Below are positions 22,657-38,106 of a stretch of 64,000 bases of DNA, piece after piece. Positions within the stretch are counted from its first letter, which is position 1. Every line of letters starts with the position of its first letter. The notes under the pieces were generated by a model. It was not told the DNA's origin, did not search any database, and saw only the letters and a program-made list of their open reading frames with translations. Source of the stretch: Nitrospirae bacterium CG02_land_8_20_14_3_00_41_53 (GTDB taxonomy: Bacteria > Nitrospirota > Thermodesulfovibrionia > Thermodesulfovibrionales > SM23-35); the NCBI GenBank assembly GCA_002780895.1, contig PEUB01000036.1, forward strand, positions 5,547-69,546, read 5' to 3'. The position numbers were made by a program, and so were the translations under genes.

Positions 22657-23439
22657 ATGTTAATAATAGGGGAGAAGCTAAGCATAATAGCCAAGAGGGT
22701 AAGAGAGGCTATGATGAAAAAAGACAAAGGACCTATACAGGATATCGCAACTTCTCAATGGAAAGCAGAAGCAGGGATGATAGATGCGAATATAGGTCCG
22801 GCTGAAGACGGTGGTGGGGAATTAATGCAGTGGATGGTCACTACTATACAGGAGGTTGTCCCCCTTCCTTTGTGTCTTGACACAACAAATTATAATGCAA
22901 TAGAGGCTGGCCTCAAGGTACACAATAACCAGTGGGGAAGACCCCTGATAAATTCTACATCAAATGATCCCGAGAGGTTTGCAATGCTTGAACTTGCAGC
23001 AAAATATAATGCTCAGATAATCGGTCTTACAGTCGGTAAGGGCGGACTCCCGGCAGATGCCGAGGAAAGGGCTGCCATCGCAGCAGAGATTATGGCAAGG
23101 GCTGCGGAATATGGAGTTCCGCTTGAGGACTTATATCTCGACCCCCTTGTCCTGCAGATTGCAACTTCACAGGATCATGCATTAAAGGTTATAAAAGCAA
23201 TAAAGATGTTTCAGGAGCTGAATGATCCGCCTATGAAGACAGTAGTGGGACTTAGTAATGTTTCGAATGGATGTCCCAAACAATTGAGACCCATATTAAA
23301 CAATTATTTTCTTTCTCTATTAATATACGAAGGTCTTACTGCTGCCATAGCAGATCCGCATGAGATAACGCCAACAGTTAAGACTATAGATGTAATACTG
23401 GGCAAGACACTTTATGCCCATTCGTATCTGGAAATGTGA
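22657..23439 (+). CDS. acsE: Methyltetrahydrofolate:corrinoid/iron-sulfur protein methyltransferase
   Basis: 260 aa, collinear with my recollection of Moorella AcsE: an MLIIGE start, CLD(T/S)TN, INSTS and GLSNVS motifs. Confidence 0.93.
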   Translation: MLIIGEKLSIIAKRVREAMMKKDKGPIQDIATSQWKAEAGMIDANIGPAEDGGGELMQWMVTTIQEVVPLPLCLDTTNYNAIEAGLKVHNNQWGRPLINSTSNDPERFAMLELAAKYNAQIIGLTVGKGGLPADAEERAAIAAEIMARAAEYGVPLEDLYLDPLVLQIATSQDHALKVIKAIKMFQELNDPPMKTVVGLSNVSNGCPKQLRPILNNYFLSLLIYEGLTAAIADPHEITPTVKTIDVILGKTLYAHSYLEM

Positions 23440-23443
23440 AAAA

Positions 23444-23527
23444 GAGCTAAGAGCTAAGAGCTAAGGCAAAAAACTCCATGCTCTTTGCTATTCGCTCTAT
23501 GCTAATTGCTCTTTGCTCTTTGCTAAA
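23444..23527. repeat. Heptad-phased array element (12 units of 7 nt) in the acsE-acsD spacer
   Basis: gagctaa x3, ggcaaaa, aactcca, tgctctt, tgctatt, cgctcta, tgctaat, tgctctt x2, tgctaaa. It belongs to the same family as 7095..7164, in opposite orientation. Confidence 0.85.
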
Positions 23528-23539
23528 GAGGAGGTTGAA

Positions 23540-24481
23540 ACGGCTTTTGCCCCACCAAAAGATACTTATTCAGGTAAGGTTTACTCAGTAAATATCGGCA
23601 CTGCCTCAGGAGAAGTTACCTTTGGAGGTGAGAATATACTTCCATTCCATACCTTTGAAGGTGTAGCGCCGAACAGACCTCTTATTGCATTTGAGATACA
23701 GGATGTTCCCCCAACTGACTGGCCAGAAAATGTACAAAAACCGTATAAGGATGTTTCGAATGACCCTGTATCATGGGCAAAATTTTGTCAGGATACTTTA
23801 AAGGCCAGGGCCATAGCGCTCAGGCTCATAGGCACGCACCCTGATAGGGAGAATCGTTCGCCTGAGGATGCAGCAAAGACTGTCAGGGATGTTCTTTCTG
23901 CAATAAGCATTCCGTTGATTATACTCGGAAGTAACCATGCTGAGAAGGATGCCTCTGTTTTAATTGCTGCTGCAGAGGCTGCAAAAGACAGGAACTGTAT
24001 TATAGGTAAGGCACAGGAGGCGAATTATAAGACGATTGCTGCTGCTGCAATGGCTAACAAACACAAATTGATTGCTATGTCTGAGCTTGATATAAATCTT
24101 TCGAAACAGTTGAACATCCTTATCACACAGATGGGGTTTGACAAAGAGAGATTAATTACAGACCCGATGTGTTCGGCCCTCGGGTACGGTCTTGAATATA
24201 CCTATTCGGTTATGGAGAGGATAAGGCTTGCTGCCCTTACACAGAATGATATAACCATGCAGCCACCAATGTTGGGTGACATAGGGATGTATGTCTGGAA
24301 GGTAAAAGAGGCGCAGGCTAGCGAAGCAGATTTACCTCAGTGGGGTTCTTTAGAAGAGAGAGGAATAGCATGGGAGGCTGTTACAGCAACAGCATTAATT
24401 ATAGCTGGTGTTGAACTTCTTATAATGCGTCACCCCAAGGCTGTTGAAGCAGTAGAAAAGGTGATTGAAGAACTTGTTTAA
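23540..24481 (+). CDS. acsD: Corrinoid/iron-sulfur protein small subunit (AcsD/CdhD-like)
   Basis: ORF 23513..24481 with VTFGGENILPFHTFEG and a TIM-barrel-like remainder. The only canonical in-frame start (TTG 23513) lies inside the repeat array and has no SD. A strong SD (GGAGG, 23530..23534) sits 5 nt before an in-frame ACG at 23540. The 5' end is therefore uncertain. Confidence 0.85.
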   Translation, partial: TAFAPPKDTYSGKVYSVNIGTASGEVTFGGENILPFHTFEGVAPNRPLIAFEIQDVPPTDWPENVQKPYKDVSNDPVSWAKFCQDTLKARAIALRLIGTHPDRENRSPEDAAKTVRDVLSAISIPLIILGSNHAEKDASVLIAAAEAAKDRNCIIGKAQEANYKTIAAAAMANKHKLIAMSELDINLSKQLNILITQMGFDKERLITDPMCSALGYGLEYTYSVMERIRLAALTQNDITMQPPMLGDIGMYVWKVKEAQASEADLPQWGSLEERGIAWEAVTATALIIAGVELLIMRHPKAVEAVEKVIEELV

Positions 24482-24702: not shown

Positions 24703-26055
24703 ATGGCTTTAACTGGCGTTGAAATATTTAAACTCCTACCAAAAACAAATTGTAAGAAGTGCGGGTTCCTTACATGTCTTGCCTTTGCAATGAAACTTGC
24801 CCAGAGGCAGGCCTCCTTAGATTTATGCCCTGATGTCTCTGAAGAAGCAAAACAGAAACTCGGTGAGGCATCTGCTCCTCCTGTAAGACCGATTATATTC
24901 GGTGCAGGTGATAGGTCGGTTAAGATGGGCGAGGAGACAGTGCTTTTCAGACATGATAAAAGGTTTGTTAACCCGTCTGTTTTTGCACTTGAAATAAAAG
25001 ATACATTTTCAGAAGCTGATATAAATAGTAAGATTGAGGAAGTTCTTAACTCAGAAATAGACAGGGTAGGTCAAAAACTGAGGATTGATGCAGTAGCTAT
25101 TATAAATGAATCTAATGACGTAAGAAGGTTTGAGGCTGCTTCAAAGATTATTGCAATAAAAGCACCTGACATCCCTGTAATTATCTGTACAGCCAATCCT
25201 CAGGCTGCTGAGGCAGCGGTAAAACTATTTACAGATAAGAAGCCAATCATATATGGAGTAAATTCAGAAAATACAGAGGCAATGGTCAATATCGCAAAGA
25301 CATATAAAGCAACTCTCGGTGTGGCGGCAAAATCACTTGATGAACTATCTGTCCTTACAGAAAAAGTCAAAGCAGCCGGTGTTGCTGATATAGTAATAGA
25401 TTCGGGTGCAAGGAATGCAAAGGAAATCATAGAGCATAATACATTAGTCAGAAGGGCAGCTATAAGGAAGAATTTCAAACCCCTCGGTTATCCTGTCATA
25501 ACCTTTGCACAGCGTGAAGATAGCCTTGTCGAGGTGCTTATAACAGTAATTGGGGTTGCAAAATACTCTTCAATAATTGTCCTGAGCAGTATTGAGAAGT
25601 GGAAGAACCTTGCCTTATTTACTTTGAGGCAGAATCTCTATACAGACCCACAGGTTCCGATGCAGGTTGAGCAGAAGGTTTATAAGTTTGGTGAACCAAA
25701 ATCTAATTCGCCATTGCTTATTACAACGAATTTTTCTCTTACTTATTTTATAGTCTCGGGAGAGGTTGAAAACAGTAAGGTCCCGAGTTATCTTGCTGTT
25801 ATGGATTGTGAAGGTCTTTCGGTACTTACAGCATGGGCAGCAGGGAAGTTTACAGCGGCAAGGATCGCACAGTTCATAAAGGAAAGCGGGATAGAAAATG
25901 ATATAAACGATAGGGAGCTTGTTATCCCTGGCTATGTGGCGATACTAAGCGGCGCAATAGAGGATAAACTTGAAGGCTGGAAAGTGACTGTTGGCCCGCG
26001 AGAGGCTAATGCAATACCAGCATTCTTAAAATCTAGGATGGCAAGCAAAAAATAG
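24703..26055 (+). CDS. acsC: Corrinoid/iron-sulfur protein large subunit (AcsC/CdhE-like)
   Basis: 450 aa with the N-terminal 4Fe-4S motif CKKCGFLTCLAFAM...C, followed by TIM-barrel and B12-binding regions. GGAGGG RBS. Confidence 0.92.
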   Translation: MALTGVEIFKLLPKTNCKKCGFLTCLAFAMKLAQRQASLDLCPDVSEEAKQKLGEASAPPVRPIIFGAGDRSVKMGEETVLFRHDKRFVNPSVFALEIKDTFSEADINSKIEEVLNSEIDRVGQKLRIDAVAIINESNDVRRFEAASKIIAIKAPDIPVIICTANPQAAEAAVKLFTDKKPIIYGVNSENTEAMVNIAKTYKATLGVAAKSLDELSVLTEKVKAAGVADIVIDSGARNAKEIIEHNTLVRRAAIRKNFKPLGYPVITFAQREDSLVEVLITVIGVAKYSSIIVLSSIEKWKNLALFTLRQNLYTDPQVPMQVEQKVYKFGEPKSNSPLLITTNFSLTYFIVSGEVENSKVPSYLAVMDCEGLSVLTAWAAGKFTAARIAQFIKESGIENDINDRELVIPGYVAILSGAIEDKLEGWKVTVGPREANAIPAFLKSRMASKK

Positions 26056-26079: not shown

Positions 26080-28278
26080 ATGTCTAAGTTAATAGCCTCA
26101 GCTGCTATAAAAGGTGCACATACGCTTGTTAAAAAGGCTGAGGATATGCTCCAGAAGGTTATCGTTGAAAAAGGTGAAGACTTCGCTTTTGAATTTCCTG
26201 ACACAGCTTTTTATCTTCCGATGATTTATGCAATGACAACCTTCCCAGTTAAAACACTTGGGGATATGAGGGTTGCGCTGGGTATGGCAAAGGAACTGCT
26301 TCATGAAGAGCCGGAAGAGCATTTATGGAAGCCGTATCTCGGCGAGGCGCTGGACTCAGGGATGGCAACACTCTTTGCTGAAGAGATAATTCTCGCATTA
26401 AAGTATATCAACGGTCTTGAACCAGCAAAAGACACTGAGACAGGCTATGTTTATAATGGATTCATCACCGATACTATCCAGAGGAATCTGGGCATCCAGC
26501 TCGTTGACGGCACGATGCCAGGCTTTGCAGTCATTATAGGCGCGGCTCCGAATGACGAAACAGCGGTAAATATCGTCAGGAAACTTCAGGGAAAGAATAT
26601 TCTCACATTCCTCTCAGGACATGTAAACGGTAACAGCGTTACAAAACAGCTCCTGAGAAAAGGTGTTGAATTAGGATGGGACACAAGAATCGTCCCTCTC
26701 GGGCCCGATACCGAGCACGCACTTTATGCAGCAGACTGGGCAATAAGGGCGTCCCTGATATACGGAGGCAAAAAACCCGGCGATTACAAAGAACATCTCA
26801 AATACCAGAAAGACAGGGTCTTTGCATTTGCAGTGGTTCTTGGTGAACTTGATGACATAATATGGACTACAGGCGCAGGAGCAATTAACATGGGATTCCC
26901 GGCAATATGCGACACTGACGTGCCGGTGATACATCCGACAGGTGTATGTATTTATGAAGAGGTAGAGAAAGAGCTTGACCACAACAAGATCGTGCAGAAG
27001 GCAATAGAGGTTAGAGGTTTGAAGATTATCGTTGAGAAACCACCTATCCCTGTTGCATATGGCCCGGCATTTGAGGGTGAAAGAATAAGGAAAGAAGATA
27101 TGTTCTTAGAGTTTGGCGGTACTCGTACACCTTCATTCGAATGGGTAAGAATGAGGGGAATGGAGGATATAGAGGACGGTAAGGTTGTAGTTGTTGGAAA
27201 TAATTGGCAGGAGAGATATGAAAAGGGTGGTGAGATGCCACTCGGAATAGTTGTTGATGTTGCAGGTAGAAAAATGCAGAAAGATTTCGAGCCGGTTATA
27301 GAAAGAAAGATTCATTCTAATATCAATGAGGCTCAGGGTGTATGGCATATGGGTCAGAGGGATATAAACTGGATGAGAATAAGTCATAATGCTAAGAAGG
27401 AAGGATTTACCCTTGAGCATCTCGGAATAATCAATGCTACTATGACCCACCACAGATTCAGGGCAATTGTGGATAAGGTTCAGGTAACGATTTATACAGA
27501 TGGGTCGGATGTATTAAGACTTATGGAAGAGGCAAGAAGTGTTTACAAAGAGCGTGACCAGAGGCTCGGCGGACTCGTAGATGAGGCAGTTGATATATTC
27601 TATTCGTGTCTCCTCTGTCAATCTTTTGCACCAAGCCATGTATGCGTAATAAGCCCTGAAAGGCTTGGTCTCTGCGGGGCATATAGCTGGCTTGATTGTA
27701 AGGCTGCATTCGAGATAGACCCAACAGGTGGGAATCAGCCAATAATAAAGGGAGAGCTTCTGGATGAAAGATATGGCAGATATACTGGCATTGACGAATA
27801 TCTGAAGAAGGCATCAGGGGGTGCGGTCGAGACGCTTAACCTTTATACCATAATGGAAAATCCCATGACCTCATGTGGTTGTTTTGAATGCATTATTGCG
27901 ATAATTCCAGAGGCAAACGGTGTGATGATAGTTCAGCGTGGTCATACAGAAATGACACCTGTAGGGATGAAATTTTCGACATTGGCAGGTAGTGTTGGCG
28001 GAGGCACACAGAATCCTGGGTTTATGGGAATTGGAAGGAACTTTATAGTCAGTAAAAAGTTTCTCCATGGTGACGGGGGAATTAAAAGGATAGTCTGGAT
28101 GACAAAGAATTTGAAAGAAAGTCTTAAAGAAGCATTTGAGAAAAGGGCTGAAGAGGAAGGTGTCCCTGATCTTCTTGATAAGATAGCTGATGAGACAGTG
28201 GCCGAAGACTCAGAAAAATTACTCGAGTTTCTCACAAGTGTAGGACATCCAGCACTTGAGATGGAACCTATGTTATGA
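26080..28278 (+). CDS. acsB: Acetyl-CoA synthase (A-cluster subunit, AcsB/CdhC)
   Basis: 732 aa with A-cluster cysteines CLLCQSFAPSHVC...C and SCGCFEC. AGGAGG RBS. Confidence 0.95.
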   Translation: MSKLIASAAIKGAHTLVKKAEDMLQKVIVEKGEDFAFEFPDTAFYLPMIYAMTTFPVKTLGDMRVALGMAKELLHEEPEEHLWKPYLGEALDSGMATLFAEEIILALKYINGLEPAKDTETGYVYNGFITDTIQRNLGIQLVDGTMPGFAVIIGAAPNDETAVNIVRKLQGKNILTFLSGHVNGNSVTKQLLRKGVELGWDTRIVPLGPDTEHALYAADWAIRASLIYGGKKPGDYKEHLKYQKDRVFAFAVVLGELDDIIWTTGAGAINMGFPAICDTDVPVIHPTGVCIYEEVEKELDHNKIVQKAIEVRGLKIIVEKPPIPVAYGPAFEGERIRKEDMFLEFGGTRTPSFEWVRMRGMEDIEDGKVVVVGNNWQERYEKGGEMPLGIVVDVAGRKMQKDFEPVIERKIHSNINEAQGVWHMGQRDINWMRISHNAKKEGFTLEHLGIINATMTHHRFRAIVDKVQVTIYTDGSDVLRLMEEARSVYKERDQRLGGLVDEAVDIFYSCLLCQSFAPSHVCVISPERLGLCGAYSWLDCKAAFEIDPTGGNQPIIKGELLDERYGRYTGIDEYLKKASGGAVETLNLYTIMENPMTSCGCFECIIAIIPEANGVMIVQRGHTEMTPVGMKFSTLAGSVGGGTQNPGFMGIGRNFIVSKKFLHGDGGIKRIVWMTKNLKESLKEAFEKRAEEEGVPDLLDKIADETVAEDSEKLLEFLTSVGHPALEMEPML

Positions 28279-28282
28279 GACA

Positions 28283-28403
28283 GTCATTAGTTACACCCCT
28301 CACCCTAACCCTCTTCCGCAAGGGGAGAGGGGACTTATTTTATTATCCCCTCCCTTGACGGGAGGGGATAGAGGGGAGGGTGAACTACTGATGACTAATG
28401 ACT
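28283..28403. repeat. Composite TIR-bounded element filling the acsB-cooS spacer
   Basis: 10-nt perfect terminal inverted repeats agtcattagt / actaatgact enclose two GC-rich palindromes. These are 28294..28334 (cacccctcaccc-taa-ccctcttcc-gcaa-ggggagagggg) and 28343..28382 (ttatcccctccc-ttgac-gggaggggata-gaggggagggtg). Confidence 0.85.
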
Positions 28404-28418: not shown

Positions 28419-30410
28419 ATGGAGAAAAAAATAGTAAAGAGTGCGAATGAAGCTGCTGAACAGATTATAGAGTGGGGTGAATCCCACGGTATAGAGACAT
28501 GCTTTGACAGGGCACAGAGACTTAAACCATGCCCTATCGGCGCTGCCGGTGCATGCTGTAAGACATGTCACATGGGACCCTGTAGGTTTGTTGGAAAGAA
28601 TGCCGAAGAGGAGGCAAGAGGGGTATGTGGCGCTACGCTGCCTACAGTTGCTTCAAGAAATCTGCTTAGAATGGCAATAGCAGGATCAGCAGCACATACG
28701 GACCATGCGAGAGATATGGCCTTTATCCTGCTTGCTGTTGCCAATGGGGAGACAAGTGATTTTAGAATAACCGATGTGAGAAAGCTTTATAAGGTTGCAG
28801 GAATCCTTGATATAGAGTTTGGAAATGGAATGGCTGTCAATGATGTTGCAAGAGATGTCGCGCTGAGATTAATTAAAGATTTCGGAAGGCAGAAGGGAGA
28901 GTTAAATTATATTAAAAGAGCTCCCAATAAGACTCAGGAAAGATGGAAAAAGTGGGGTATTACTCCAAGAGGAATTGACAGGGAAATAACAGAGGCAATG
29001 CATCGCACTCACATGGGTGTTGACCATGCCCCTGATAACCTTCTTTTAAGCGCCCTCAGGGTTTCCCTCGCTGATGGCTGGGGAGGTTCTATGATCTCAA
29101 CTGATATTACAGATATTCTTTTTGGTACTCCTCGACCAGTAAAGGCAGAGGCGGGTTTTGGGATATTTAAAGAAGATGAGGTCAATATTGTTGTGCATGG
29201 ACATGAACCCTCACTTGCAGAAATGATTGTGGATGTAGTAAATGAACCTGAGATGATTGCATATGCAAAATCAAAGGGTGCAAAGGGAATAAATCTTGGT
29301 GGCATGTGCTGTACTGCAAATGAGGTATTAATGAGGCACGGGATCCCAACAGCAGGTGGATTTACAAATCAGGAGTTAGCGATCATGACAGGACTCATTG
29401 ATGCAATAACAGTTGATGTCCAGTGTATAATGCCTGCATTAGTAGAACTTTCAAGGAAATTTCATACAAAGGTAATTACCACATCTTATAAGGCAAAAAT
29501 ACCGGGTGCTGTTCATATTGAATATGACGAGCACAGGGCGAAGGAAATCGCAAGGGAGATAGTAAAGTTTGCTATAGATAACTATCCTAATAGAAAGGCA
29601 GAAGGGATACATATAAATCAGAAATTTCCGGTTATAGCAGGTTTTTCACATGAATATATTGAATATATGCAGGGAGGTAGATGGAGGGCATCCTTCAGGC
29701 CATTGAATGATGCAATTATGGCAGGTAGGATTCGTGGAGTTGTTGGTCTTGCAGGTTGTGACAATCCACGGGTTCCTTCACAAGGGCTTCATCGCTTTCT
29801 TGCAGTTGAGCTAATCAAGAATGATGTGCTTATACTATCAACAGGGTGTGGATCTCATGCATGTGGGACCGCGGGATATCTTATACCAGAGATGGCATTG
29901 GAAAATGCCGGTCCAGGATTAAGAGAGGTATGCGAGGCAATAGGGGTTCCTCCTATCCTTCACCTTGGCTCATGTGTAGATAATTCAAGAATTTTAACGA
30001 TTGTCTCTGCAATGGCAGCAGAAGGCGGCCTCTCTGATGAGATTGGGGGTATGCCTGTTGTAGGTATTGCCCCTGAATGGATGTCAGAGAAGGCGATTTC
30101 TATCGGGTGTTATCTCGCTGCATCAGGCGTCCCTGTGATATTTGGCGGTGAATCACCAGTGAGTGCAAGTGAGGAAGTAACTAAGATAATGACAGAGGTA
30201 TGGTTTGAAAGATTCAAGGGTGCGTTACATTTTGAGCCTGACCCTGAAAAAATACTGAGCCTTACCCTTGAATATATAGATAGGGCCAGGGAAGCACTTA
30301 AACTTAGAAAATATGAACCCGGCAAGTTTGGCGCTGAAAGGGTTCTTCTGGATATGGCTGCAAGGCGTGAACTTGAAAAGGCAGCTAAGCCGCATATAGG
30401 AATATATTAG
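28419..30410 (+). CDS. acsA: Anaerobic Ni-Fe-S carbon monoxide dehydrogenase catalytic subunit (CooS/AcsA)
   Basis: 663 aa with an N-terminal D/B-cluster motif CPIGAAGACCKTCHMGPCR and C-cluster region motifs (HGHEP, GGMCCTANE, GCDNP, GSCVDNSR). Confidence 0.95.
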   Translation: MEKKIVKSANEAAEQIIEWGESHGIETCFDRAQRLKPCPIGAAGACCKTCHMGPCRFVGKNAEEEARGVCGATLPTVASRNLLRMAIAGSAAHTDHARDMAFILLAVANGETSDFRITDVRKLYKVAGILDIEFGNGMAVNDVARDVALRLIKDFGRQKGELNYIKRAPNKTQERWKKWGITPRGIDREITEAMHRTHMGVDHAPDNLLLSALRVSLADGWGGSMISTDITDILFGTPRPVKAEAGFGIFKEDEVNIVVHGHEPSLAEMIVDVVNEPEMIAYAKSKGAKGINLGGMCCTANEVLMRHGIPTAGGFTNQELAIMTGLIDAITVDVQCIMPALVELSRKFHTKVITTSYKAKIPGAVHIEYDEHRAKEIAREIVKFAIDNYPNRKAEGIHINQKFPVIAGFSHEYIEYMQGGRWRASFRPLNDAIMAGRIRGVVGLAGCDNPRVPSQGLHRFLAVELIKNDVLILSTGCGSHACGTAGYLIPEMALENAGPGLREVCEAIGVPPILHLGSCVDNSRILTIVSAMAAEGGLSDEIGGMPVVGIAPEWMSEKAISIGCYLAASGVPVIFGGESPVSASEEVTKIMTEVWFERFKGALHFEPDPEKILSLTLEYIDRAREALKLRKYEPGKFGAERVLLDMAARRELEKAAKPHIGIY

Positions 30411-30453
30411 TGTAGCCGCACCCTTTAGGGTGCGTTTATTATAGCAGGCTACA
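30411..30453. repeat. TGTAGCCGC-family hairpin element
   Basis: tgtagccgcaccctttagggtgcg...gcaggctaca, immediately after the cooS stop. Related to 21908..22002. Confidence 0.75.
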
Positions 30454-30467
30454 TTTTTGGAGGTTAA

Positions 30468-30953
30468 ATGATAATAGAAGAGATTGAAATTGATGAACAA
30501 ATAGGAGAGGTTGGTAGAATACTTAGTAAGCAGGAAAGGAAGAGAGGATTACTGATACATGTTCTCCAACAGATTCAGGAGAATGATGGTTATTTGCAGG
30601 AAGAAGTTTTAAGGAGGCTTTCTAAAAACCTCAATATTTCGCTTGCTGAGATTTATAGTGTTGCAAGTTTTTACAAAATGTTCCACTTCAAACCCAGAGG
30701 CAGAAAAATTGTAAGGGTTTGTCTTGGCACGGCCTGTTACGTAAGAGGATCAAAAAAGATTTTAACAACACTTGAAGAAGAGTTTGGTATAAAGAACGGA
30801 GAAACAACCGAAGACCTTGCTATGACTTTAGAGACAGTAGGATGTATAGGTTGTTGTGGACTTGCGCCTGTTACTATGATTAATGAGGAAATTATAGGTG
30901 AAATCGGAACAAAAAAAATAGAAGGAATAGTTAACGCGATAAAAGAAGAATAA
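30468..30953 (+). CDS. NuoE/HydC-like thioredoxin-fold [2Fe-2S] protein
   Basis: 161 aa with CLGTACYVRGS...GCIGCCGLAP cysteine pattern. GGAGG RBS. Confidence 0.88.
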   Translation: MIIEEIEIDEQIGEVGRILSKQERKRGLLIHVLQQIQENDGYLQEEVLRRLSKNLNISLAEIYSVASFYKMFHFKPRGRKIVRVCLGTACYVRGSKKILTTLEEEFGIKNGETTEDLAMTLETVGCIGCCGLAPVTMINEEIIGEIGTKKIEGIVNAIKEE

Positions 30954-30966: not shown

Positions 30967-33294
30967 ATGAAAAGATTTAATAGTGTTAACGACCTAATTT
31001 CCTATAGAAAACTACTTCTTACAGAAGGATTATTAATCCCGGGGAAGAACAGGATTAAAGTTTGCTGTGGTACAGCGTGTGGTGCATCAGGTTCTCACAA
31101 GGTTGTAAGGGCATTAGAGGATTACCCTAAAAGCGATTTAGATATTGAACTCATAAAGACAGGGTGTCAGGGTCTTTGTCAAAAAGGTCCTGTTATGAAG
31201 GTCGAACCATATGATTATTTCTATCAGAAAGTCAGTCCTGATAAAGCATCAGAGATACTCTCCACATATATAACAGGACTCCCTGCACGAGACCTTCTTT
31301 ATAGAGAATCATTCATCAATCCTCCGATTGAGAAGATGGAGGGGGTGCCTTTTTATAAGAAGCAGTTAAGAGTTGTACTTAGAAATAATGGAAGGATAGA
31401 TCCCTGTAATATATCCCACCATATTGCTGTTGGTGGGTATTTAGCAATTGAGAAGATATTTTCCTCAATGACTCCAGAGCAAGTTCTTGATGAGGTAAAA
31501 AAGGCAAATATCAGGGGTCGAGGTGGTGCAGGATTTCCAGCTGGCATAAAATGGGGATTCGCTAAAAAGTCTCCTGTTTCAAATAAGATGGTAATAGCCA
31601 ACGGTGATGAAGGTGACCCTGGCGCTTTTATGGACAGGTCAGTTATGGAGGGTGACCCTTTCAGCTTGCTTGAGGGGATGCTTATATGTGCCTATGTAAT
31701 TTGCGCACATTACGGGTTTATTTATGTCCGTCATGAGTATCCACTTGCTGTTAAGAATCTGGGTATAGCAATTAAGAAGGCAGAGGAAATTGGACTCTTG
31801 GGTAAAAATATCCTCGGGACAGGGTTTGATTTTACAGTTCACATAAGGGAAGGCGCTGGAGCTTTTGTATGTGGCGAGGAGACAGCACTCATGGCATCAG
31901 TCGAGGGAGAAAGGGGATTTCCAAGACCAAAACCTCCATTTCCTGCTGAGAGTGGTCTATGGAATAGCCCTACGATTATTAACAATGTTGAGACACTTGT
32001 AAATATTCCTTATATTATAGAAAAGGGAGCAGATTGGTTTCTGAGTATGGGGACACAAAATTCACCAGGGACGAAGGTCTTTGCCCTTACAGGAAAGGTT
32101 GTTGACACAGGGCTTGTTGAGGTACCTATGGGAATAACCCTCAGGGAGATTATCTTCGATATTGGTGGAGGAATTATAAATAATAAAAAGTTTAAGGCAG
32201 TACAGACAGGAGGGCCTTCAGGTGGATGCATTCCCGAGCAATATCTTGATCTGCCTGTAGATTATGATTCTCTTGCAAAGGTTGGTTCGATAATGGGTTC
32301 AGGCGGAATGGTAGTGATGGATGAGGATAACTGCATGGTAGATATTGCTAAGTTTTTCCTCTCCTTTACACAGTCTGAGTCATGCGGGAAATGTCCGCCA
32401 TGCCGAATTGGGACATATCAGATGCTCCAAATCCTTGAAAAAATAACGTCTGGTAATGGTGAGCCTGGAGATATAGAGAAACTTGAGAAGCTCGGGAAAC
32501 TTGTAAAGACAGGCTCTCTTTGTGGCCTTGGCCTGACTGCACCAAATCCAGTGCTAACAACAATTAAATATTTCCGTGAAGAATACGAAGAGCACATACA
32601 TGATAAATACTGCAGGGCAAAGGTTTGTAGCGGTCTTGGCATGTTTATCATAGAACAAAGTGAATGTATCCTTTGTGGTCTATGCAAGCAGGCATGTGCC
32701 TTTGATGCAGTTAAGGAGACGAGAAGGAGATTCTTTATTGACCAGGATTACTGCACAAGGTGTAAGGCTTGCTACCTTGCATGTCCCACAGGTGCTGTGA
32801 AGATAAAGAAGAAAAGACATGTAAGGCTTGAAGAGGTATTCGGGATACCACCTGAAAGCATAGAAATCATGGAAAGGAGATGTAGAATGACATTAAGAGA
32901 TATCTTAAAATCAAAACCGCCTATGATCGTGACTATTCAAAAAAATCGCACTATTAGAGATGCAGTATATACCATGAGCGAGAAGAATGTCAGCGGGATT
33001 TTTGTGGTTGATGAAAATAATAAATTGGCAAGTATATTTACGGAAAGGGATATTGTGCGATGTGTTTTTAATAATATATCTCTCGATGAGACTATCGAGA
33101 ATATAATGAGACGTGATATTACAACATTTGATCCCTCGACAGAAATAAGTTCAGCAATAACGGTCGCTTCAAGAAAGAAGATCAGACATATACCTGTTGT
33201 GGAAGGAGATAACATTGTGGGAATGATTACTTTTAGGGATTTAGTTTCATATCTGCTTCCAGAAATCTGCTATATGTCAGAAGCACTTTATTGA
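30967..33294 (+). CDS. NuoF/HydB-like FMN- and NAD(P)H-binding FeS subunit with N-terminal 2Fe-2S domain, C-terminal 2x[4Fe-4S] and a fused CBS pair
   Basis: 775 aa. Motifs: CCGTACGASGS...GCQGLCQKGP; RGRGGAGFPAG; ANGDEGDPGAFMDR; ESCGKCPPCRIGT; CILCGLCKQAC / CTRCKACYLACP. The C-terminal ~135 aa is a tandem CBS region (IFVVDENNKLASIFTERDI, IPVVEGDNIVGMITFRDL). Confidence 0.88.
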   Translation: MKRFNSVNDLISYRKLLLTEGLLIPGKNRIKVCCGTACGASGSHKVVRALEDYPKSDLDIELIKTGCQGLCQKGPVMKVEPYDYFYQKVSPDKASEILSTYITGLPARDLLYRESFINPPIEKMEGVPFYKKQLRVVLRNNGRIDPCNISHHIAVGGYLAIEKIFSSMTPEQVLDEVKKANIRGRGGAGFPAGIKWGFAKKSPVSNKMVIANGDEGDPGAFMDRSVMEGDPFSLLEGMLICAYVICAHYGFIYVRHEYPLAVKNLGIAIKKAEEIGLLGKNILGTGFDFTVHIREGAGAFVCGEETALMASVEGERGFPRPKPPFPAESGLWNSPTIINNVETLVNIPYIIEKGADWFLSMGTQNSPGTKVFALTGKVVDTGLVEVPMGITLREIIFDIGGGIINNKKFKAVQTGGPSGGCIPEQYLDLPVDYDSLAKVGSIMGSGGMVVMDEDNCMVDIAKFFLSFTQSESCGKCPPCRIGTYQMLQILEKITSGNGEPGDIEKLEKLGKLVKTGSLCGLGLTAPNPVLTTIKYFREEYEEHIHDKYCRAKVCSGLGMFIIEQSECILCGLCKQACAFDAVKETRRRFFIDQDYCTRCKACYLACPTGAVKIKKKRHVRLEEVFGIPPESIEIMERRCRMTLRDILKSKPPMIVTIQKNRTIRDAVYTMSEKNVSGIFVVDENNKLASIFTERDIVRCVFNNISLDETIENIMRRDITTFDPSTEISSAITVASRKKIRHIPVVEGDNIVGMITFRDLVSYLLPEICYMSEALY

Positions 33295-33325: not shown

Positions 33326-35422
33326 ATGAAAAGACTCGATAGTATTGATGACCTTATTGTCCTCCGTAACCTTCTATTAAAAGAAGGGGTATTAGCCCCT
33401 GGTAAAAAAAGGATAAAGGTTTGTTGTGGGCTTCCCTGTAGCACCTTGGGTTCCCATGAAGTTACAAAGGAATTAGAGAATGAAATCTCTAAGAACAGTC
33501 TGGATATCGAAGTGATAAAAACAGGATGCCAGGGTCTTTGCCAGAGAGGACCCCTTATAAAGACCGAACCATATAATTATTTCTATCAGAAAGTCAGTCC
33601 AGAAAAAGTAGGAGAGATTATATCTAAGACCTTTTTAGCAGGACGACCTGTAAGAGAGTGTCTTTTCAGAGATTCTTTTCTTGAGCCACCCAAAGAAGTA
33701 ACTGAAGAGATTCCTTTTTATAAGAAGCAGCTGAAGGTTGCACTCAGGAATACTGGTTGTATAGACCCGCATAGTATATCTCACTATATTGTAACCGGCG
33801 GGTATATGGCTATTGAAAAGATATTTTCCTCCATGAGCCCAGAACAAGTACTTGAGGAGGTAACAAAGGCTAACCTCAGGGGCCGGGGTGGTGCAGGGTT
33901 CCCCGCAGGGAAAAAGTGGAAACATACCAAAAGTTCTCGTTGTGACATAAAATTTGTGATAGCCAATGGTGATGAAGGTGACCCTGGCGCTTTTATGGAC
34001 AGGTCTGTCATGGAAGGTGATCCTCACAGCCTGCTCGAGGGAATGCTTATATGTGCTTATGCAATTAGTGCACATTATGGGATTATTTATGTCCGTCACG
34101 AGTACCCTCTTGCCATTAAGAATTTGGGAATAGCTATTAATCAAGCGCAGGAGCTTGGGCTTATAGGTAAAAATATCCTCGGGACAGGATTTGATTTTAC
34201 AGTTCACATAAGGGAAGGCGCGGGTGCCTTTGTGTGCGGTGAATCTACTGCTCTTATTGCATCGGTAGAAGGAGAAAGGGGTATGCCGCGACCAAGACCT
34301 CCGCGACTTTCTGAAATTGGAGGAGGGGTTTGGGGATATCCAACTAATTTGAATAATGTAGAGACTTATGCTTGTATGCCTCAAATAATCGAGAAGGGAG
34401 CCGATTGGTTCCTGAATATAGGAACAGAAAATTCACCTGGTACAAAAGTATTTTCTCTTGCAGGAAAGGTTAAAAATACAGGGCTTATTGAAGTGCCTAT
34501 GGGGATAACCCTGAGGGAGATCATATTCGATATTGGGGGAGGAATATTAAATAATAAGAAATTCAAGGCAGTGCAGACAGGAGGGCCTTCGGGCGGGTGT
34601 ATCCCTGAGCAATATCTTGATCTGCCTGTAGATTATGATTCTCTTGCAAAGGTTGGCTCAATAATGGGTTCAGGTGGAATGGTCGTAATGGATGAGGACA
34701 ACTGTATGGTAGATGTTGCTAAGTTTTTCCTCTCCTTTACACAGGCTGAGTCATGCGGGAAATGTCCTCCATGCAGGATAGGTACATACCAGATGCTCCA
34801 AATCCTCGAAAAGATAACATTAGGCAATGGAGAGGAAGGAGATATAGGAAAACTTGAAAGGTTTGGGAAACTTGTAAAGGCAGGTTCCCTCTGTGGTCTT
34901 GGCCAGAATGCACCAAACCCTGTTCTTACGACCATCAAATATTTCCGTGAAGAATACGAAGAGCATATAAGAGATAAATATTGCAGGGCAAAGGTCTGCA
35001 CCGGACTCGGATTACTCTCAATAAACACTGAAATCTGCTACCAGTGTATGCGCTGCATGGATACATGTCCATTTGAGGCAATAAAAGAATCCAGGGAAGG
35101 TGGATTTTATATAGACCAGGTGCTCTGCCAGAGATGTAAGGCATGCTATATGGCATGTCCCTTAGGCGCTATAGAGATTAAAGAACAGCCCTTTACCTAT
35201 ATAGATACAGAGCTATGCTATCTCTGCGGCCGCTGTAAAGATGTATGCAGGATTAATGCAATAAAGGAAACTTCAACCGGATTCATGATAGATCGCTTTG
35301 TATGTAGGAAGTGCGGTGATTGTTACAATATATGCCCTATGGGAGCTGTGAGGTTTGAGAAAAGAACCCACCCCCCTGTGTCCCCCCTTAGTAAGGGGGG
35401 AATTAAAGAGGGGTGCCCTTAG
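33326..35422 (+). CDS. Second NuoF/HydB-like subunit (tandem paralog) with C-terminal polyferredoxin extension
   Basis: 698 aa with the same core motifs as the upstream paralog. Four CxxCxxCxxxCP-type clusters follow at the C-terminus. The last ~17 aa (HPPVSPLSKGGIKEGCP) are encoded by a GC-rich palindromic repeat. Confidence 0.88.
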   Translation: MKRLDSIDDLIVLRNLLLKEGVLAPGKKRIKVCCGLPCSTLGSHEVTKELENEISKNSLDIEVIKTGCQGLCQRGPLIKTEPYNYFYQKVSPEKVGEIISKTFLAGRPVRECLFRDSFLEPPKEVTEEIPFYKKQLKVALRNTGCIDPHSISHYIVTGGYMAIEKIFSSMSPEQVLEEVTKANLRGRGGAGFPAGKKWKHTKSSRCDIKFVIANGDEGDPGAFMDRSVMEGDPHSLLEGMLICAYAISAHYGIIYVRHEYPLAIKNLGIAINQAQELGLIGKNILGTGFDFTVHIREGAGAFVCGESTALIASVEGERGMPRPRPPRLSEIGGGVWGYPTNLNNVETYACMPQIIEKGADWFLNIGTENSPGTKVFSLAGKVKNTGLIEVPMGITLREIIFDIGGGILNNKKFKAVQTGGPSGGCIPEQYLDLPVDYDSLAKVGSIMGSGGMVVMDEDNCMVDVAKFFLSFTQAESCGKCPPCRIGTYQMLQILEKITLGNGEEGDIGKLERFGKLVKAGSLCGLGQNAPNPVLTTIKYFREEYEEHIRDKYCRAKVCTGLGLLSINTEICYQCMRCMDTCPFEAIKESREGGFYIDQVLCQRCKACYMACPLGAIEIKEQPFTYIDTELCYLCGRCKDVCRINAIKETSTGFMIDRFVCRKCGDCYNICPMGAVRFEKRTHPPVSPLSKGGIKEGCP
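35367..35415. repeat. GC-rich nested palindromic element forming the 3' end of the NuoF-2 gene
   Basis: cccacccccc-tgt-gtcccccc-ttagtaa-gggggg-aattaaa-gaggggtg. The stop codon is at 35420..35422. Confidence 0.8.
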
Positions 35423-35439
35423 AAATATTTGGAGGAAAA

Positions 35440-36057
35440 ATGAGCGAAGAGAGTTTAATCGAGGAAAAGGAGAAAAAACTCGAGGACATAAGGAAAGAGG
35501 CTGAGGAAAAGGCATGTCTTGTTCAAAGGGCTCTATATTATGTTGAGGAATTCCTTGCAGGGCCTATGTGTGGCAGGTGCTATCCCTGTTCACTCGGAAC
35601 TTATGAAGCAAGGATCAGGTTAATCAGGATCAGCCAACATTTGGAAAATGTCAACGAGTCAGATATCAAGGCTCTTAAAAGAATCGGTTCAAAGATGATG
35701 GAGGGTTCATTTTGTAAAAAGGGAAAAGATACAGGTAAGTTTATTATCGAGACACTTACAAGTTCAGAGGAGGAGATCAATCAGCATCTTTCAGGTATCT
35801 GTCCAAAAAAGGAATGTATCAACCTTATTGAATATGTGATAAATCCTGAATTGTGTATCATGTGTGGAAAATGTTTAGAGACATGTAAATATGATGCAAT
35901 AATAGGTGAAAAAAGAGAGCCCTATCTTTCTGGATACCTTCCTTTTGAGATAAGGCAGAAGAGGTGTACAAGGTGCGGAGAATGTATTAAAGTTTGCCCT
36001 GCAGAGGCGATTGAGGTTATAACGACGAAAATAGAGGAATTAGTTAGCAGCAAATAA
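35440..36057 (+). CDS. FeS protein: NuoF C-terminal (4Fe-4S N3-type) helical domain homolog fused to 2x[4Fe-4S] ferredoxin
   Basis: GGAGG RBS plus ATG at 35440 (MSEESL). MCGRCYPCSLGTYEARIRLIRI parallels ESCGKCPPCRIGTYQMLQILEKI of the NuoF paralogs. CIMCGKCLETC and CTRCGECIKVCP follow. Confidence 0.75.
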   Translation: MSEESLIEEKEKKLEDIRKEAEEKACLVQRALYYVEEFLAGPMCGRCYPCSLGTYEARIRLIRISQHLENVNESDIKALKRIGSKMMEGSFCKKGKDTGKFIIETLTSSEEEINQHLSGICPKKECINLIEYVINPELCIMCGKCLETCKYDAIIGEKREPYLSGYLPFEIRQKRCTRCGECIKVCPAEAIEVITTKIEELVSSK

Positions 36058-36084
36058 TTTCATAATAAAATAGAGGAGGTCTGA

Positions 36085-38106
36085 ATGGAAAAATTGATTA
36101 AACTTCAAATAGACGGCAGAGAGGTTCAAGTACCTGAAGGGATGAACATTATTGATGCAGCAGAACTTGCAGAGATTCATATACCTAATCTCTGTTATCT
36201 CAAAGGGATGAAGGGGATCGGTGCTTGCAGGCTCTGTCTTGTGGAGATAGAAGGGATGAAGGCACCTGTAATAGCATGCAATACAAAGGCTAAGGATGGT
36301 ATGGTTGTTAATACAAAAACTGATAAGGTTCAAGAGATCAGGAAATTTGTCGTAGACCTTATCCTTTCAATGCACCCACTCGATTGTATGACATGTACAA
36401 AGGCAGGGGTATGCAACCTTCAGAAATATGCCTATGACTTTGAACTTAAGGAATCGAGCTTTACAAGAAAAAGGATGGGCTATCCAACTGATGAAGCAAA
36501 TCCATTTATAAAGAGAGATCCCGAATATTGTATACTGTGCGGCAGGTGTGTCAGGGTATGCAAAGAACAGGGGACGAATGTACTCGCGTTCATGGGAAGA
36601 GGTGTCGGAGCAAAAGTTATCACTGCAAATGACAAGCCACTTCAGGAATCGGAGTGCACATTCTGTGGAAGCTGTCTTGATGCGTGTCCAGTAAATGCCC
36701 TCCTTGAGGCAGACAGATGGCGTAAAGGCAGGGAGTGGGAGTATGAAAGAATCAATTCTGTTTGTCTTTTGTGCGGCAATGGCTGCGACATCATAGTAAG
36801 CACTAAAGATGGCAGTGTGCAGAAGATTAGCGCAGGGGCACCGAAGGGCTCTGCGGAAAGATATATTTGTGCCTATGGCAGATTTGGTTTTGACTCTATT
36901 GAGGCAGAGACGCGCCTTACATCTCCCATGAAAAGGGTAAACAGTGAACTCAAAGAGACTACATGGGAAGACGCCCTCAGTATAGTTGCTGATAAATTAA
37001 AAAAAGCTGGCAAGGGAGCAGGCTTTATAAGCATTGCTGGCATAGAAAATGAAGATGCGATAACCCTGAAAAAGCTTGCTAAAGATGTTGTTAAGACAAA
37101 GAATTTCGACACAACTATGAGTCTCTATGCAGAGAGTGATTCTCTAAAAAACTCTCAAACAGCAGACATCAATAAGGCAGACCTTATTGTACTTGTCGGT
37201 CTAAATCCTTCCCAGTGGGAAAGGATTTTACCTGCACTTGATGCCTCTGTAAGAAGAAGGGTTGACAGAGGGGCAAAGCTTGTTGTCATAAATTCCTCTG
37301 ATACAAAAATCGGAGAGGCAGCAACAATAAATATTATAGGAAACGAGACATCCATTCTGAAACGTATTGCAAAGGCTTTAATAGGAAAGGGACTGAAAGC
37401 AGATAAAAAGTTAGAGGCTTCTGTCAAAGACGTAGAACTATCAGAGGAGATCGAAAAGGCAGCAACATTTATTGCTGAGGCAAAGGAGCCGGTACTATTG
37501 AGTTCTCCTTCACTTTTTGATGCATCAGCCAATATTGCGCTGATGAAAGGAAAGATCATTACTGTTGGCCTTGAAAGCAATGCGCATGGTGTTGCCCTGA
37601 TGGGGTTGACGACAGAGGGGAAAACTTATAAGGAAATGGTCTCTGATGGGATGAAAGTCCTTTATGCTGTCGGTGAAGTTCCTTTAAACAAAAGACCGGA
37701 TACGGATTTCCTCATAGTGCAGAACTCACATCTTACAGAACTTGCTAAACAGGCGGATGTTGTACTGCCTTCAGCGACTTTCCTTGAATCTGCTGGTACA
37801 ATAATAGATTATATGGGAAGACTGAAATATCTTCCAAAGGTAATAGAACCTCAGGGAGAATCAAAAAGCCACAGAGATATTTTTATCCATCTTGCAAAGA
37901 TTATGGGAGCCACAATTAAAAGACCTGCAGAGGCCGAGGTTAAAAAGGCGTCAAAGGTGGAGACCAAACTTATATTCAGCCCGTTTACTAAAAAAGAAGG
38001 GCTTGATATATCGCCAAATGAGATAATCGAATCTGTCAATGCCTCTGTTATTAATGGTTCAAGACTTTTGTGGCTTAAAGAGGCTGAAAAGGCAGTGGCT
38101 GTGTAA
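36085..38106 (+). CDS. NuoG/HylA-like polyferredoxin with short molybdopterin-oxidoreductase-type domain
   Basis: 673 aa. It has an N-terminal 2Fe-2S (CYLKGMKGIGACRLCLVEI...C), a His-ligated cluster region (HPLDCMTCTKAGVCNLQ), 2x[4Fe-4S] (CILCGRCVRVC, CTFCGSCLDACP) and CLLCGNGCDI. There is no H-cluster domain and no in-frame TGA. Confidence 0.8.
   Translation: MEKLIKLQIDGREVQVPEGMNIIDAAELAEIHIPNLCYLKGMKGIGACRLCLVEIEGMKAPVIACNTKAKDGMVVNTKTDKVQEIRKFVVDLILSMHPLDCMTCTKAGVCNLQKYAYDFELKESSFTRKRMGYPTDEANPFIKRDPEYCILCGRCVRVCKEQGTNVLAFMGRGVGAKVITANDKPLQESECTFCGSCLDACPVNALLEADRWRKGREWEYERINSVCLLCGNGCDIIVSTKDGSVQKISAGAPKGSAERYICAYGRFGFDSIEAETRLTSPMKRVNSELKETTWEDALSIVADKLKKAGKGAGFISIAGIENEDAITLKKLAKDVVKTKNFDTTMSLYAESDSLKNSQTADINKADLIVLVGLNPSQWERILPALDASVRRRVDRGAKLVVINSSDTKIGEAATINIIGNETSILKRIAKALIGKGLKADKKLEASVKDVELSEEIEKAATFIAEAKEPVLLSSPSLFDASANIALMKGKIITVGLESNAHGVALMGLTTEGKTYKEMVSDGMKVLYAVGEVPLNKRPDTDFLIVQNSHLTELAKQADVVLPSATFLESAGTIIDYMGRLKYLPKVIEPQGESKSHRDIFIHLAKIMGATIKRPAEAEVKKASKVETKLIFSPFTKKEGLDISPNEIIESVNASVINGSRLLWLKEAEKAVAV

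Follow-up and report, generated by a model that had tools for sequence, protein, structure and literature searches.

A Bfu-type module joined to the CODH/ACS operon of a Nitrospirota bacterium: a candidate NADP(H)/ferredoxin-linked redox partner

The Bfu family was defined by Schut et al. in 2022 through three subunits: BfuB, with PF01512/IPR011538, the SLBB domain PF10531/IPR019554, PF10589/IPR019575, and IPR017896; BfuC, with PF01257/IPR002023; and BfuA, with at least 2Fe-2S and 4Fe-4S ferredoxin-type domains. The same study predicted Codh-Bfu, in which CO/CO2 would serve as third substrate beside NAD(P)H and ferredoxin (Acetohalobium arabaticum, Clostridium cellulovorans); that prediction covers four Firmicutes sequences, in which a monofunctional carbon monoxide dehydrogenase (CODH) with extra [4Fe-4S] subunits is encoded between bfuB and bfuA and BfuB belongs to clade 49 (PMC9304861). 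Here we describe a 64,000-nt stretch of contig PEUB01000036.1 from Nitrospirae bacterium CG02_land_8_20_14_3_00_41_53—the window—in which the genes for a bifunctional CODH/acetyl-CoA synthase (CODH/ACS) are followed by genes for a variant of the Bfu module.

We refer to the nuoE-nuoF-frag-nuoG gene set of this module as the cassette, frag being a 214-aa protein that resembles the C terminus of HydB. The genetics points to the cassette as a dedicated NADP(H)/ferredoxin-linked redox partner of CODH/ACS, a reading to which we would assign a probability of roughly 0.6. Textbooks treat CODH/ACS as ferredoxin-dependent, and the matter bears on how sulfate-, sulfur-, or nitrate-respiring autotrophs obtain low-potential electrons for the conversion of CO2 to CO, as well as on how acetate oxidizers pull the unfavorable cleavage of acetyl-CoA.

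The acs operon and the module that follows it

Ten plus-strand open reading frames (ORFs) occupy 22657-38106 (positions are those of the window unless a locus label, such as L001, marks a relative). Their exact coordinates, their order—acsE-acsD-acsC-acsB-cooS, followed by genes for a NuoE-like protein, for two NuoF paralogs of HydB type, for frag, and for a NuoG-like protein—and the 57-nt gap between the two halves agree with an earlier reading of this DNA (the original prediction), with gene identities now assigned by Pfam and NCBIfam profiles against curated cut-offs. Successive ORFs are separated by 73, 221, 24, 140, 57, 13, 31, -10, and 27 nt:

22489..22516, plus strand: candidate promoter 5' of acsE; best sigma-70-like match, CTGAAA-16-TATAAT, a consensus match only
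22657..23439, plus strand: acsE, methyltetrahydrofolate:corrinoid iron-sulfur protein methyltransferase, 260 aa; Pterin_bind domain
23513..24481, plus strand: acsD, encoding the small subunit of the corrinoid iron-sulfur protein, 322 aa, TTG start as listed; CdhD domain; NF003376 at 434 bits (cut-off 280)
24703..26055, plus strand: acsC, encoding the large subunit of the corrinoid iron-sulfur protein, 450 aa; FeS and CdhD domains; NF003195 at 593 bits (cut-off 306)
26080..28278, plus strand: acsB, acetyl-CoA synthase, 732 aa; NF040764 at 1016 bits (cut-off 800)
28419..30410, plus strand: cooS/acsA, Ni-CODH catalytic subunit, 663 aa; TIGR01702 at 571 bits (cut-off 478)
30408..30458, plus strand: junction element; nested hairpin like a repetitive extragenic palindrome (REP), then U5, then the GGAGG Shine-Dalgarno sequence and ATG of the nuoE-like gene
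30468..30953, plus strand: BfuC/HydC/NuoE-like [2Fe-2S] subunit, 161 aa; PF01257 at 1.3e-48
30967..33294, plus strand: BfuB/HydB-like flavoprotein copy 1, 775 aa; assigned by domains, cofactor motifs, and match to solved BfuB
33326..35422, plus strand: BfuB/HydB-like flavoprotein copy 2, 698 aa; assigned on the same grounds
35413..36057, plus strand: frag, 214 aa; NADH_4Fe-4S domain and two [4Fe-4S] motifs; start overlaps the preceding stop by 10 nt
36085..38106, plus strand: BfuA-type NuoG-like polyferredoxin, 673 aa; TIGR01973 over the full length; one 2Fe-2S and four 4Fe-4S motifs, dead molybdopterin-fold domain

The first five genes encode a bacterial CODH/ACS (AcsABCDE). Four of the five subunits exceed their NCBIfam cut-offs and the metal-ligand motifs are in place: the A-cluster motif of AcsB is complete (C510/C513/C522/C532 and C599-G-C601), and CooS shows the Cys pattern of the D/B clusters at its N terminus together with the positions of the C-cluster ligands, H262, C298, C336, C447, C477, and C519. 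AcsE scores 249.7 bits against NF040758, under the cut-off of 370; its assignment relies on the Pterin_bind domain, its position, and its homology to equivalently placed genes of related acs clusters, with which it shares 71-90% identity. A Pfam scan found no cooC/acsF, RACo, hydrogenase, formate dehydrogenase (FDH), or nuo gene among the window's ORFs of at least 110 aa, bearing out the original prediction that the cluster has no Ni-insertion ATPase or corrinoid reductive-activase gene, and the module no hydrogenase or FDH partner.

The module's two NuoF-like proteins are much closer to the B subunits of solved bifurcating enzymes than to complex I NuoF (746-765 versus ~375 bits), the solved set comprising NiFe-HydABCSL of A. 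mobile, HydABC of A. woodii and T. kivui, Stn of S. ovata, and NfnABC. Copy 1 matches NiFe-HydB (7t2r_B) at 764 bits and copy 2, or NuoF2, matches T. kivui HydB at 713 bits. Copy 1 has an N-terminal thioredoxin-like 2Fe-2S domain (B5; C33/34, C38, C67, C71), the site for flavin mononucleotide (FMN) and NAD(P)H, B1, a His/Cys (Zn) B2 site (H543/H545, C549, C554), B3/B4 (eight Cys at 567-606), and a C-terminal CBS pair; copy 2 repeats these sites and adds a second di-cluster ferredoxin domain, for a total of four CxxCxxCxxxC motifs. The B2, B3, B4, and B5 sites are absent from the nonbifurcating homologs NuoF, HoxF, and FdsB (Li et al., PMC11829005), and none of the cofactor sites that distinguish bifurcating BfuB from NuoF of complex I is missing from either window protein. 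Set against the family definition, PF01512, PF10589, and Fer4 occur in both, with SLBB below threshold (19.4 and 25.0 bits; Pfam gathering value 27); PF01257 occurs in the 161-aa protein, whose cluster C1 ligands Cys 85, 90, 126, and 130 are present, and Fer2_4 and Fer4 occur in the 673-aa protein. The placement that the original prediction had left to profile comparison thus comes out at BfuB/HydB, at about twice the complex I score and with all Bfu-specific sites: by their sequences, both NuoF-like proteins are of the bifurcating BfuB type and not the complex I type.

These scores bear directly on a reading of the genes as the NuoEFG N-module of a respiratory complex I, its membrane part being encoded at another site. 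Such a role would suit the NuoE-like protein, which passes PRK07539.1-2 (144.9 bits; cut-off 141), and the end-to-end match of the NuoG-like protein to TIGR01973; genomes with an 11-subunit complex I exist, and "Nuo-Bfu" complexes have been proposed in the literature for Nitrospirae. Yet TIGR01973 is matched at only 366.5 bits against a cut-off of 470 and TIGR01959 at 480 and 461 bits against 558.65, the NuoF-like proteins bear HydB-type extra domains at both termini (a complex I NuoF would be expected at ~420-450 aa), the window's ORFs of at least 110 aa supply no nuo gene, and the cassette is embedded in acs rather than nuo operons in three phyla. In Candidatus Sulfobium mesophilum (L007) the cassette lies between cooS and nfnBA, another contig holds a full nuoA-N operon that includes nuoE, nuoF, and nuoG genes of its own, and cooC lies elsewhere (PMC5812927); the cassette is therefore not a missing N-module in that organism. 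Table S2 of the same paper lists acsE to cooS as 170011-170015 and NfnB and NfnA as 170020-170021, omitting the four genes in between (PMC5812927). On the strength of the nuoA-N operon, the HydB architecture, and the embedding in acs operons we rejected the N-module, which we judge highly improbable.

The frag protein is homologous to the C-terminal third of HydB (7p5h_B residues 465-626) but stands alone, with B1-like, B2-like (H125, C130, C135), and B3/B4-like sites and without the FMN domain. It has 872 matches in a database clustered at 90%, of which the top 120 are all ~200 aa, their named members belonging to Nitrospirota or Thermodesulfovibrionales; a database clustered at 50% yields 21 representatives at E < 1e-30. 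Stand-alone members down to ~30% identity retain every Cys and the His. The nearest homolog, at 96% identity, lies on a 1.2-kb contig, and in metagenomic loci L081, L089, L102, L108, and L111 two frag-like genes stand in tandem upstream of the NuoG-like gene. The CBS pair at the C terminus of copy 1 (residues ~640-775; 32884-33294) recurs as a fusion to HydB-type flavoproteins in L001-L005, L012, L013, L094, L100, and L107, and no matched solved BfuB chain continues past the B3/B4 domain; the fusion suggests that adenine nucleotides or a comparable ligand exert control.

The NuoG-like protein lacks an H-cluster, as originally predicted; its molybdopterin-type domain had been called short, and this does not stand, for PF00384 is matched almost end to end and it is the active site and the C-terminal Molydop_binding domain (PF01568) that are missing. 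The catalytic C386-H387 of FdsA from R. capsulatus (6tg9_A; "ARVCHSP") aligns to Tyr-Ala of "MSLYAES", no Cys occurs beyond residue 262, and the gene has no in-frame TGA. Together with the absence of PF01568 these features rule out an active FDH, the outcome on which the original prediction would have foundered; the score against the FDH model TIGR01591 is 166 bits (cut-off 666). An [FeFe]-hydrogenase HydA is ruled out likewise: the protein contains neither an H-cluster domain nor any hydrogenase Pfam domain, and only residues 5-214, the 2Fe-2S/4Fe-4S region, match hydrogenase models, at scores far under the cut-offs (NF040763, 223 versus 765 bits). Its best solved relative is the large subunit of NfnABC/Stn (9bov_A, NfnA of the C. 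saccharolyticus type), to which it aligns in two pieces that omit residues ~106-563 of that chain, the inserted GltD-like domain; Pfam assigns neither a Pyr_redox nor a Fer4_20 domain to any of the ten, and separate NfnAB-like genes are seen in relatives only. The five downstream genes therefore encode a Bfu-type core (BfuB and BfuC), a BfuA that would act as an iron-sulfur wire, and an extra wire subunit.

Loss of the catalytic residues and, in Nitrospirota, of the C-terminal domain could also mark a functionless, decaying remnant of an NAD-dependent FDH or hydrogenase operon, and Desulfobacterales do have a real FDH with a related NuoF beside their acs genes. We find this barely credible. 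Every ORF is intact, all cluster-binding Cys and His residues are conserved to ~30% identity across phyla, and gene order is kept while flanks change. The dead domain, moreover, is equally dead in all lineages: the Cys/Sec-His pair is absent from the NuoG-like proteins of every cassette lineage compared. A precedent is available in functional StnC, where the dead FdhF-like domain is structural (PMC10482914).

Nucleotide preference can be approached through the alignment of solved BfuB subunits, in which the nucleotide site of T. kivui HydB reads CGES...RPPR and that of the other four top-scoring subunits CGEE...PPF. The Glu of the CGEE motif corresponds to E183 of E. coli NuoF, the residue that discriminates against NADPH, and the A. 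mobile enzyme uses NAD. NAD use is documented for A. woodii HydB, StnB, and NfnB (PMC10021017, PMC10482914, PMC11829005), and T. kivui HydABC uses NADP+, held in the structure by Phe205 and Arg340 (PDB 8a6t; PMC10021017). In the window, copy 1 has the NAD-type signature CGEE...PPF and copy 2 the NADP-type CGES...RPPR, its R327 aligning to R340 of T. kivui HydB. All 11 single-copy cassette NuoFs of Nitrospirota read CGE[S/A]...RPPR, and the same CGE[S/A]...PPR signature is found in the cassette NuoFs of metagenomic loci, Desulfothermobacter, and Oleimmundimicrobium, while hydrogenase- or FDH-type NuoFs neighboring them in the same loci read CGEE...PPF. The window and L006 represent a Nitrospirota sublineage with duplicated NuoF: both copies are of NAD type in L006, and in the window copy 2 keeps the NADP type and copy 1, with its CBS pair, has switched to the NAD type. 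In a neighbor-joining tree without support values, cassette NuoFs form one group apart from Firmicutes HydB-like proteins. On the two-residue signature, single-copy cassette BfuB is predicted to use NADP(H).

Linkage to CODH/ACS in three phyla

Linkage of the cassette to cooS and acsB is tight and recurrent, spanning three phyla. With NuoF copy 1 as query, a scan that took one genome for each species returned 80 loci. Thirteen are close relatives at 63-75% identity, all metagenome-assembled genomes (MAGs) of Nitrospirota/Thermodesulfovibrionales; three are from Desulfobacterales; and the other 64 (~49-59% identity, mostly Firmicutes) have nuoE and nuoF without acs genes. The full order, acsE-acsD-acsC-acsB-cooS and then nuoE-nuoF-frag-nuoG, recurs in 10 of the 13 Nitrospirota species, one of them with a 4.3-kb insert between the halves; in the remaining three (L004, L012, L013) the cassette lies apart from acs. 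Only one of these loci shares the window's upstream flank and none the downstream flank, so the acs-cassette block has been kept through rearrangements.

Farther afield, a 5-sequence alignment of distant frag homologs was used to search metagenomes (a 13-sequence version was too divergent as a query). It recovered loci whose AcsB and CooS are only ~50% identical to those of the window and in which the cassette is joined to acs in other orders: acsB-acsC-RACo-cooC-acsD-acsE-nuoE-nuoF-frag-nuoG-cooS or nuoE-nuoF-frag-nuoG-cooS-acsB-acsC-cooC-acsD-acsE. Named organisms show the same association. Desulfothermobacter acidiphilus and Ammonifex thiophilus (Bacillota) have cooC-nuoE-nuoF-frag-nuoG-cooS-acsB-acsC-RACo-cooC-acsD-acsE, Desulforudis sp. 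DRI-14 (Bacillota) has this order minus frag, and Candidatus Oleimmundimicrobium (Actinomycetota) has fhs-RACo-cooC-folD-acsD-nuoE-nuoF-frag-nuoG-cooS-acsB-acsC. In both phyla the cassette is thus within the acs operon and immediately upstream of cooS; in L082, L161, and L162 the stop codon of the nuoG-like gene and the start codon of cooS overlap, and ~20 nt separate the two genes in L164 and L165. Just upstream, locus L082 also encodes a true selenocysteine FDH together with the NuoE and NuoF that belong to it, which makes the cassette a second, separate set rather than the FDH diaphorase. The cooS-nuoE-nuoF adjacency, which might have been peculiar to one genome, is accordingly not so, and outside Nitrospirota it takes a rearranged and tighter form. 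The named Bacillota carriers have sulfur-compound-reducing, autotrophic lifestyles, and Ca. Sulfobium is described as a sulfate reducer able to oxidize acetate completely; named carriers are respiring organisms rather than classical acetogens. The acs operon of T. phaeum, as described, does not include the cassette.

The three Desulfobacterales/Deltaproteobacteria MAG loci (L020, L026, L043) were considered as a second case and ruled out, since a full-length Sec/Cys FdhA (934 aa) identifies an ordinary FDH beside acs. Their order is acsD-acsB-acsC-acsE, fructose-1,6-bisphosphatase (annotated in L020; an ORF of equal size in L026 and L043), NuoE, NuoF, FdhA, with the FdhA of L043 split, probably at the Sec codon; the NuoF carries CGES and falls into the cassette clade of the neighbor-joining tree. 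Other neighbors vary: a Fur-family regulator lies between acsC and acsB in L011 (3665-4063), an IS1595 transposase directly after the NuoG-like gene in L002 (15286-16239), and a CooC-like ATPase immediately upstream of acsE in L003 (1043-1810). NfnAB-like pairs (GltD-like plus DHODB-type Fe-S protein) adjoin the cassette in two different arrangements, in L005 (6276-8581, minus strand), L012 (6652-8966, minus strand), and L007 (14728-16985, plus strand), and are annotated as NfnB and NfnA in Ca. Sulfobium.

The linkage must also be weighed against a role of the cassette as a free-standing soluble NADPH:ferredoxin oxidoreductase or Nfn/Stn-like transhydrogenase, placed beside acs for co-regulation and in contact with CODH/ACS through free ferredoxin. 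The kinship of the NuoG-like protein to the NfnABC/Stn large subunit (minus the GltD insertion) would fit, as would the pairing of one NAD-type with one NADP-type BfuB in the window, the NfnAB-like neighbors, the three detached cassettes, and the duplication in frag of the presumed ferredoxin-binding part of HydB. Most cassettes, however, encode just one BfuB, of NADP type, and offer no second nucleotide site, which makes a transhydrogenase reaction impossible for them, and ~13 iron-sulfur clusters in four subunits exceed the needs of a plain NADPH:ferredoxin reductase. NfnAB next door argues for different jobs of the two enzymes, and co-regulation alone hardly explains either the stop-start overlap of nuoG-like and cooS genes or the placement of the cassette between acsD or acsE and cooS. 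We regard a free-standing enzyme as unlikely while keeping it in serious consideration.

Considerably less likely still is a service role, in which the module would supply low-potential electrons for reductive activation or repair (corrinoid Co(II) to Co(I), or Ni of the A- and C-clusters) instead of catalytic flux. The window cluster has no RACo or CooC gene, a bifurcating-type module could make very low-potential electrons from NADPH, and in other phyla the cassette stands beside cooC and RACo genes. But RACo is present along with the cassette in the loci of Bacillota and Actinomycetota and is thus not replaced by it; bifurcation from NADPH needs a high-potential acceptor, and the cassette encodes none; and a four- or five-subunit complex is large for repair.

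The cooS/nuoE junction and surrounding sequence

The original prediction had the operon running straight into the module, and here it needs correction: a hairpin, a U5 run, and the Shine-Dalgarno sequence fill the 57-nt gap. The hairpin folds at -23 kcal/mol (z = -3.2), a stability reached by 1 of 200 shuffles, and the gap is too small for a promoter between cooS and nuoE. Five relatives (L001, L002, L003, L006, L007) have nonhomologous, equally strong hairpins in the same junction, in most cases with a run of U immediately ahead of the ribosome-binding site; in another two relatives the longest ORFs overlap. The element may be a partial terminator or an mRNA-stabilizing structure. With such hairpins here and in five relatives, expression of the two halves is probably uneven, not necessarily separate, and read-through with partial termination or transcript processing is likely, which would leave the module below the level of CODH/ACS. 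The window's junction hairpin is one of three copies of a REP-like palindromic repeat, GTAGCCGCANCCTTTAGGNTGCG, at 21909-21931 (plus strand), 21966-21988 (minus strand), and 30412-30434 (plus strand), which differ by compensatory stem changes and of which none would be expected by chance. An IS200/Y1-type transposase-like ORF at 60525-61196 (plus strand) could be a REP-associated transposase. Further stable hairpins occupy the acsD/acsC gap (24611-24642) and, as a pair, the acsB/cooS gap (28309-28375), and suggest segmental control of transcript stability within the acs part too.

The ten-gene block is an island between opposite-strand housekeeping genes, rimP-nusA-recG upstream and a 7TM-HD hydrolase, PhoH, a SPOR protein, and queA downstream, and the sign of the GC skew changes at both of its borders (~22 kb and ~38 kb). 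The candidate promoter sits within the 338-nt noncoding stretch that separates acsE from a divergent lipoprotein ORF. The latter, an unlisted 59-aa ORF at 22139-22318 (minus strand), has a signal peptide, a lipobox (FSVGC), an Ala-Pro repeat, a strong Shine-Dalgarno sequence 5', and a strong terminator 3' at 22099-22127; the listed plus-strand ORF at 22110-22373 is its mirror image and probably spurious. Two-component genes stand in a row at 11204-17139 (minus strand), some 5-11 kb upstream of the acs cluster; their products are a hybrid histidine kinase, a response regulator, and two further kinases, one HAMP/PAS and one PAS, and panB interrupts the series. When the window was scanned with Rfam, a single tRNA was the only match, with no leader or riboswitch.

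Proposed function and comparison with known systems

Apart from sites for NAD(P)H and, by our reading, ferredoxin, the module itself offers none for a substrate, so its third partner must be a separate enzyme, and the conserved gene linkage nominates CODH/ACS. The independent proposal of CODH-linked Bfu enzymes by Schut et al. (PMC9304861) also speaks for this reading. Comparative genomics in this way supports the original suggestion that electrons take a dedicated, NAD(P)H-linked and possibly bifurcating path to or from CODH/ACS; physical contact with CODH, the nucleotide specificity, and bifurcation or confurcation itself we infer from the genes.

Mechanistically, electrons would travel between the C-cluster of CODH, by way of clusters B and D in CooS, and the chains of clusters in the NuoG-like protein, frag, or both, to reach the FMN/B1/C1 site of BfuBC, where they would be split between, or gathered from, NADP(H) and ferredoxin. 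During acetyl-CoA oxidation, exergonic reduction of NADP+ would pull the cleavage while half of the electrons are saved as reduced ferredoxin; during CO2 fixation, NADPH and reduced ferredoxin would jointly reduce CO2 to enzyme-bound CO, halving the demand for ferredoxin. In the present genome the second, NAD-type BfuB with its CBS pair may add NADH as a partner together with adenine-nucleotide regulation. Thermodynamics supplies the rationale for such a scheme. According to Thauer's reviews, the overall couple of CO2 plus a methyl group to acetyl-CoA reportedly lies near -200 mV. For CO2/CO, E0' is -520 mV (Schut et al., PMC9304861). With very little CO in the tunnel of the enzyme, the working potential would be intermediate, in the range where Bfu enzymes handle H2, formate, or NADPH.

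A bolder and more tentative proposal, which we hold at somewhat under even odds, is that CODH/ACS of Thermodesulfovibrionia, of Ammonifex/Desulforudis-type Bacillota, and of Aquicultoria-type Actinomycetota is not purely ferredoxin-dependent but forms a supercomplex with a four-subunit NADP(H)-type Bfu module. Such a supercomplex would confurcate NADPH and reduced ferredoxin for CO2 reduction at the C-cluster and, in reverse, bifurcate the electrons of acetyl-CoA cleavage to NADP+ and ferredoxin; in this genome the duplicated, CBS-regulated NAD-type flavoprotein would also allow exchange with NADH. If true, the ATP and redox bookkeeping of the Wood-Ljungdahl pathway changes in these organisms, and the recently defined Bfu family gains a physiologically central member. 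The idea is directly testable because the cassette is present in cultured strains (Desulfothermobacter acidiphilus, Ammonifex thiophilus, Desulforudis).

Several points weigh against a dedicated partnership. The predicted NADP specificity of cassette BfuB stands on two residues and one characterized enzyme, and the NuoF grouping on a simple neighbor-joining tree without support values. In the window a hairpin and U5 separate cooS from nuoE, and the cassettes found away from acs in L004, L012, and L013 mean that co-transcription is not obligatory. NfnAB-like genes beside the cassette fit a general balancing of redox pools equally well. Finally, it is unclear why a donor of such low potential as CO should require an enzyme of the bifurcating type, a question also raised by Schut et al. 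(PMC9304861).

In the literature we found no paper that treats the acs-embedded cassette as a unit, only passing mentions, in a search that left subscription journals outside its scope. These mentions comprise nuoEF "close to" CODH/ACS in an NPL-UPA2 MAG, "nuo" drawn in actinobacterial CODH/ACS neighborhoods, genes labeled "Unassigned" that lie upstream of cooS, and, for Ca. D. audaxviator, "only the nuoEFG complex". Genome papers have passed over the cassette genes, leaving them unassigned, counting them as parts of complex I, or omitting them from tables.

Comparison with known systems sets the cassette among enzymes that each share part of its makeup. CODH-CooF-FNOR clusters (Carboxydothermus, Clostridium, Thermanaeromonas) are predicted CO:NAD(P)+ oxidoreductases and likewise link a CODH to pyridine nucleotides; they do so, however, through a single GltD-like FAD protein plus CooF, unrelated to NuoEFG/Bfu, and their partner is a monofunctional CODH. 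HylABC-FdhF2 and FdsABG share the NuoE/NuoF/NuoG-like trio, and such FDHs stand beside acs in Desulfobacterales and L082; the cassette differs in having neither the catalytic Cys/Sec-His nor Molydop_binding, and the window has no separate FdhF gene. Stn/NfnABC (PDB 8oh5, 9bov, 9n5u; PMC10482914, PMC11829005) has the same BfuBC core and a large subunit with an inactive FdhF-like domain, whereas its GltD-like FAD/NADPH domain (~105-563) is absent from the large subunit here and NADP(H) is instead predicted at the FMN site of BfuB. To T. kivui HydABC the likeness extends over full-length BfuB and BfuC homologs with the same FMN, B1, Zn/B2, B3/B4, and B5 sites, and to the Ser (CGES) and Arg340 (PPR) positions common to NuoF2 and all single-copy cassette NuoFs; unlike HydABC, the cassette has no H-cluster domain, and its A subunit ends in a dead molybdopterin fold.

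Codh-Bfu resembles the cassette in that a BfuABC-type module is genetically joined to a Ni-CODH, and both are so far predicted from genes. It has no ACS, whereas here the partner is a bifunctional CODH/ACS operon. In place of the Codh-Bfu arrangement, cooS lies upstream of bfuC in the window or directly after bfuA in the other phyla, a CooF gene is absent, and ACS genes are present; the cassette is further set apart by its dead NuoG/StnC-type BfuA, the extra frag subunit, the NADP-type BfuB signature, and its occurrence in three phyla. What these loci add to the Codh-Bfu idea of Schut et al. is the suggestion that a whole CODH/ACS operon can be the partner of a Bfu-family variant.

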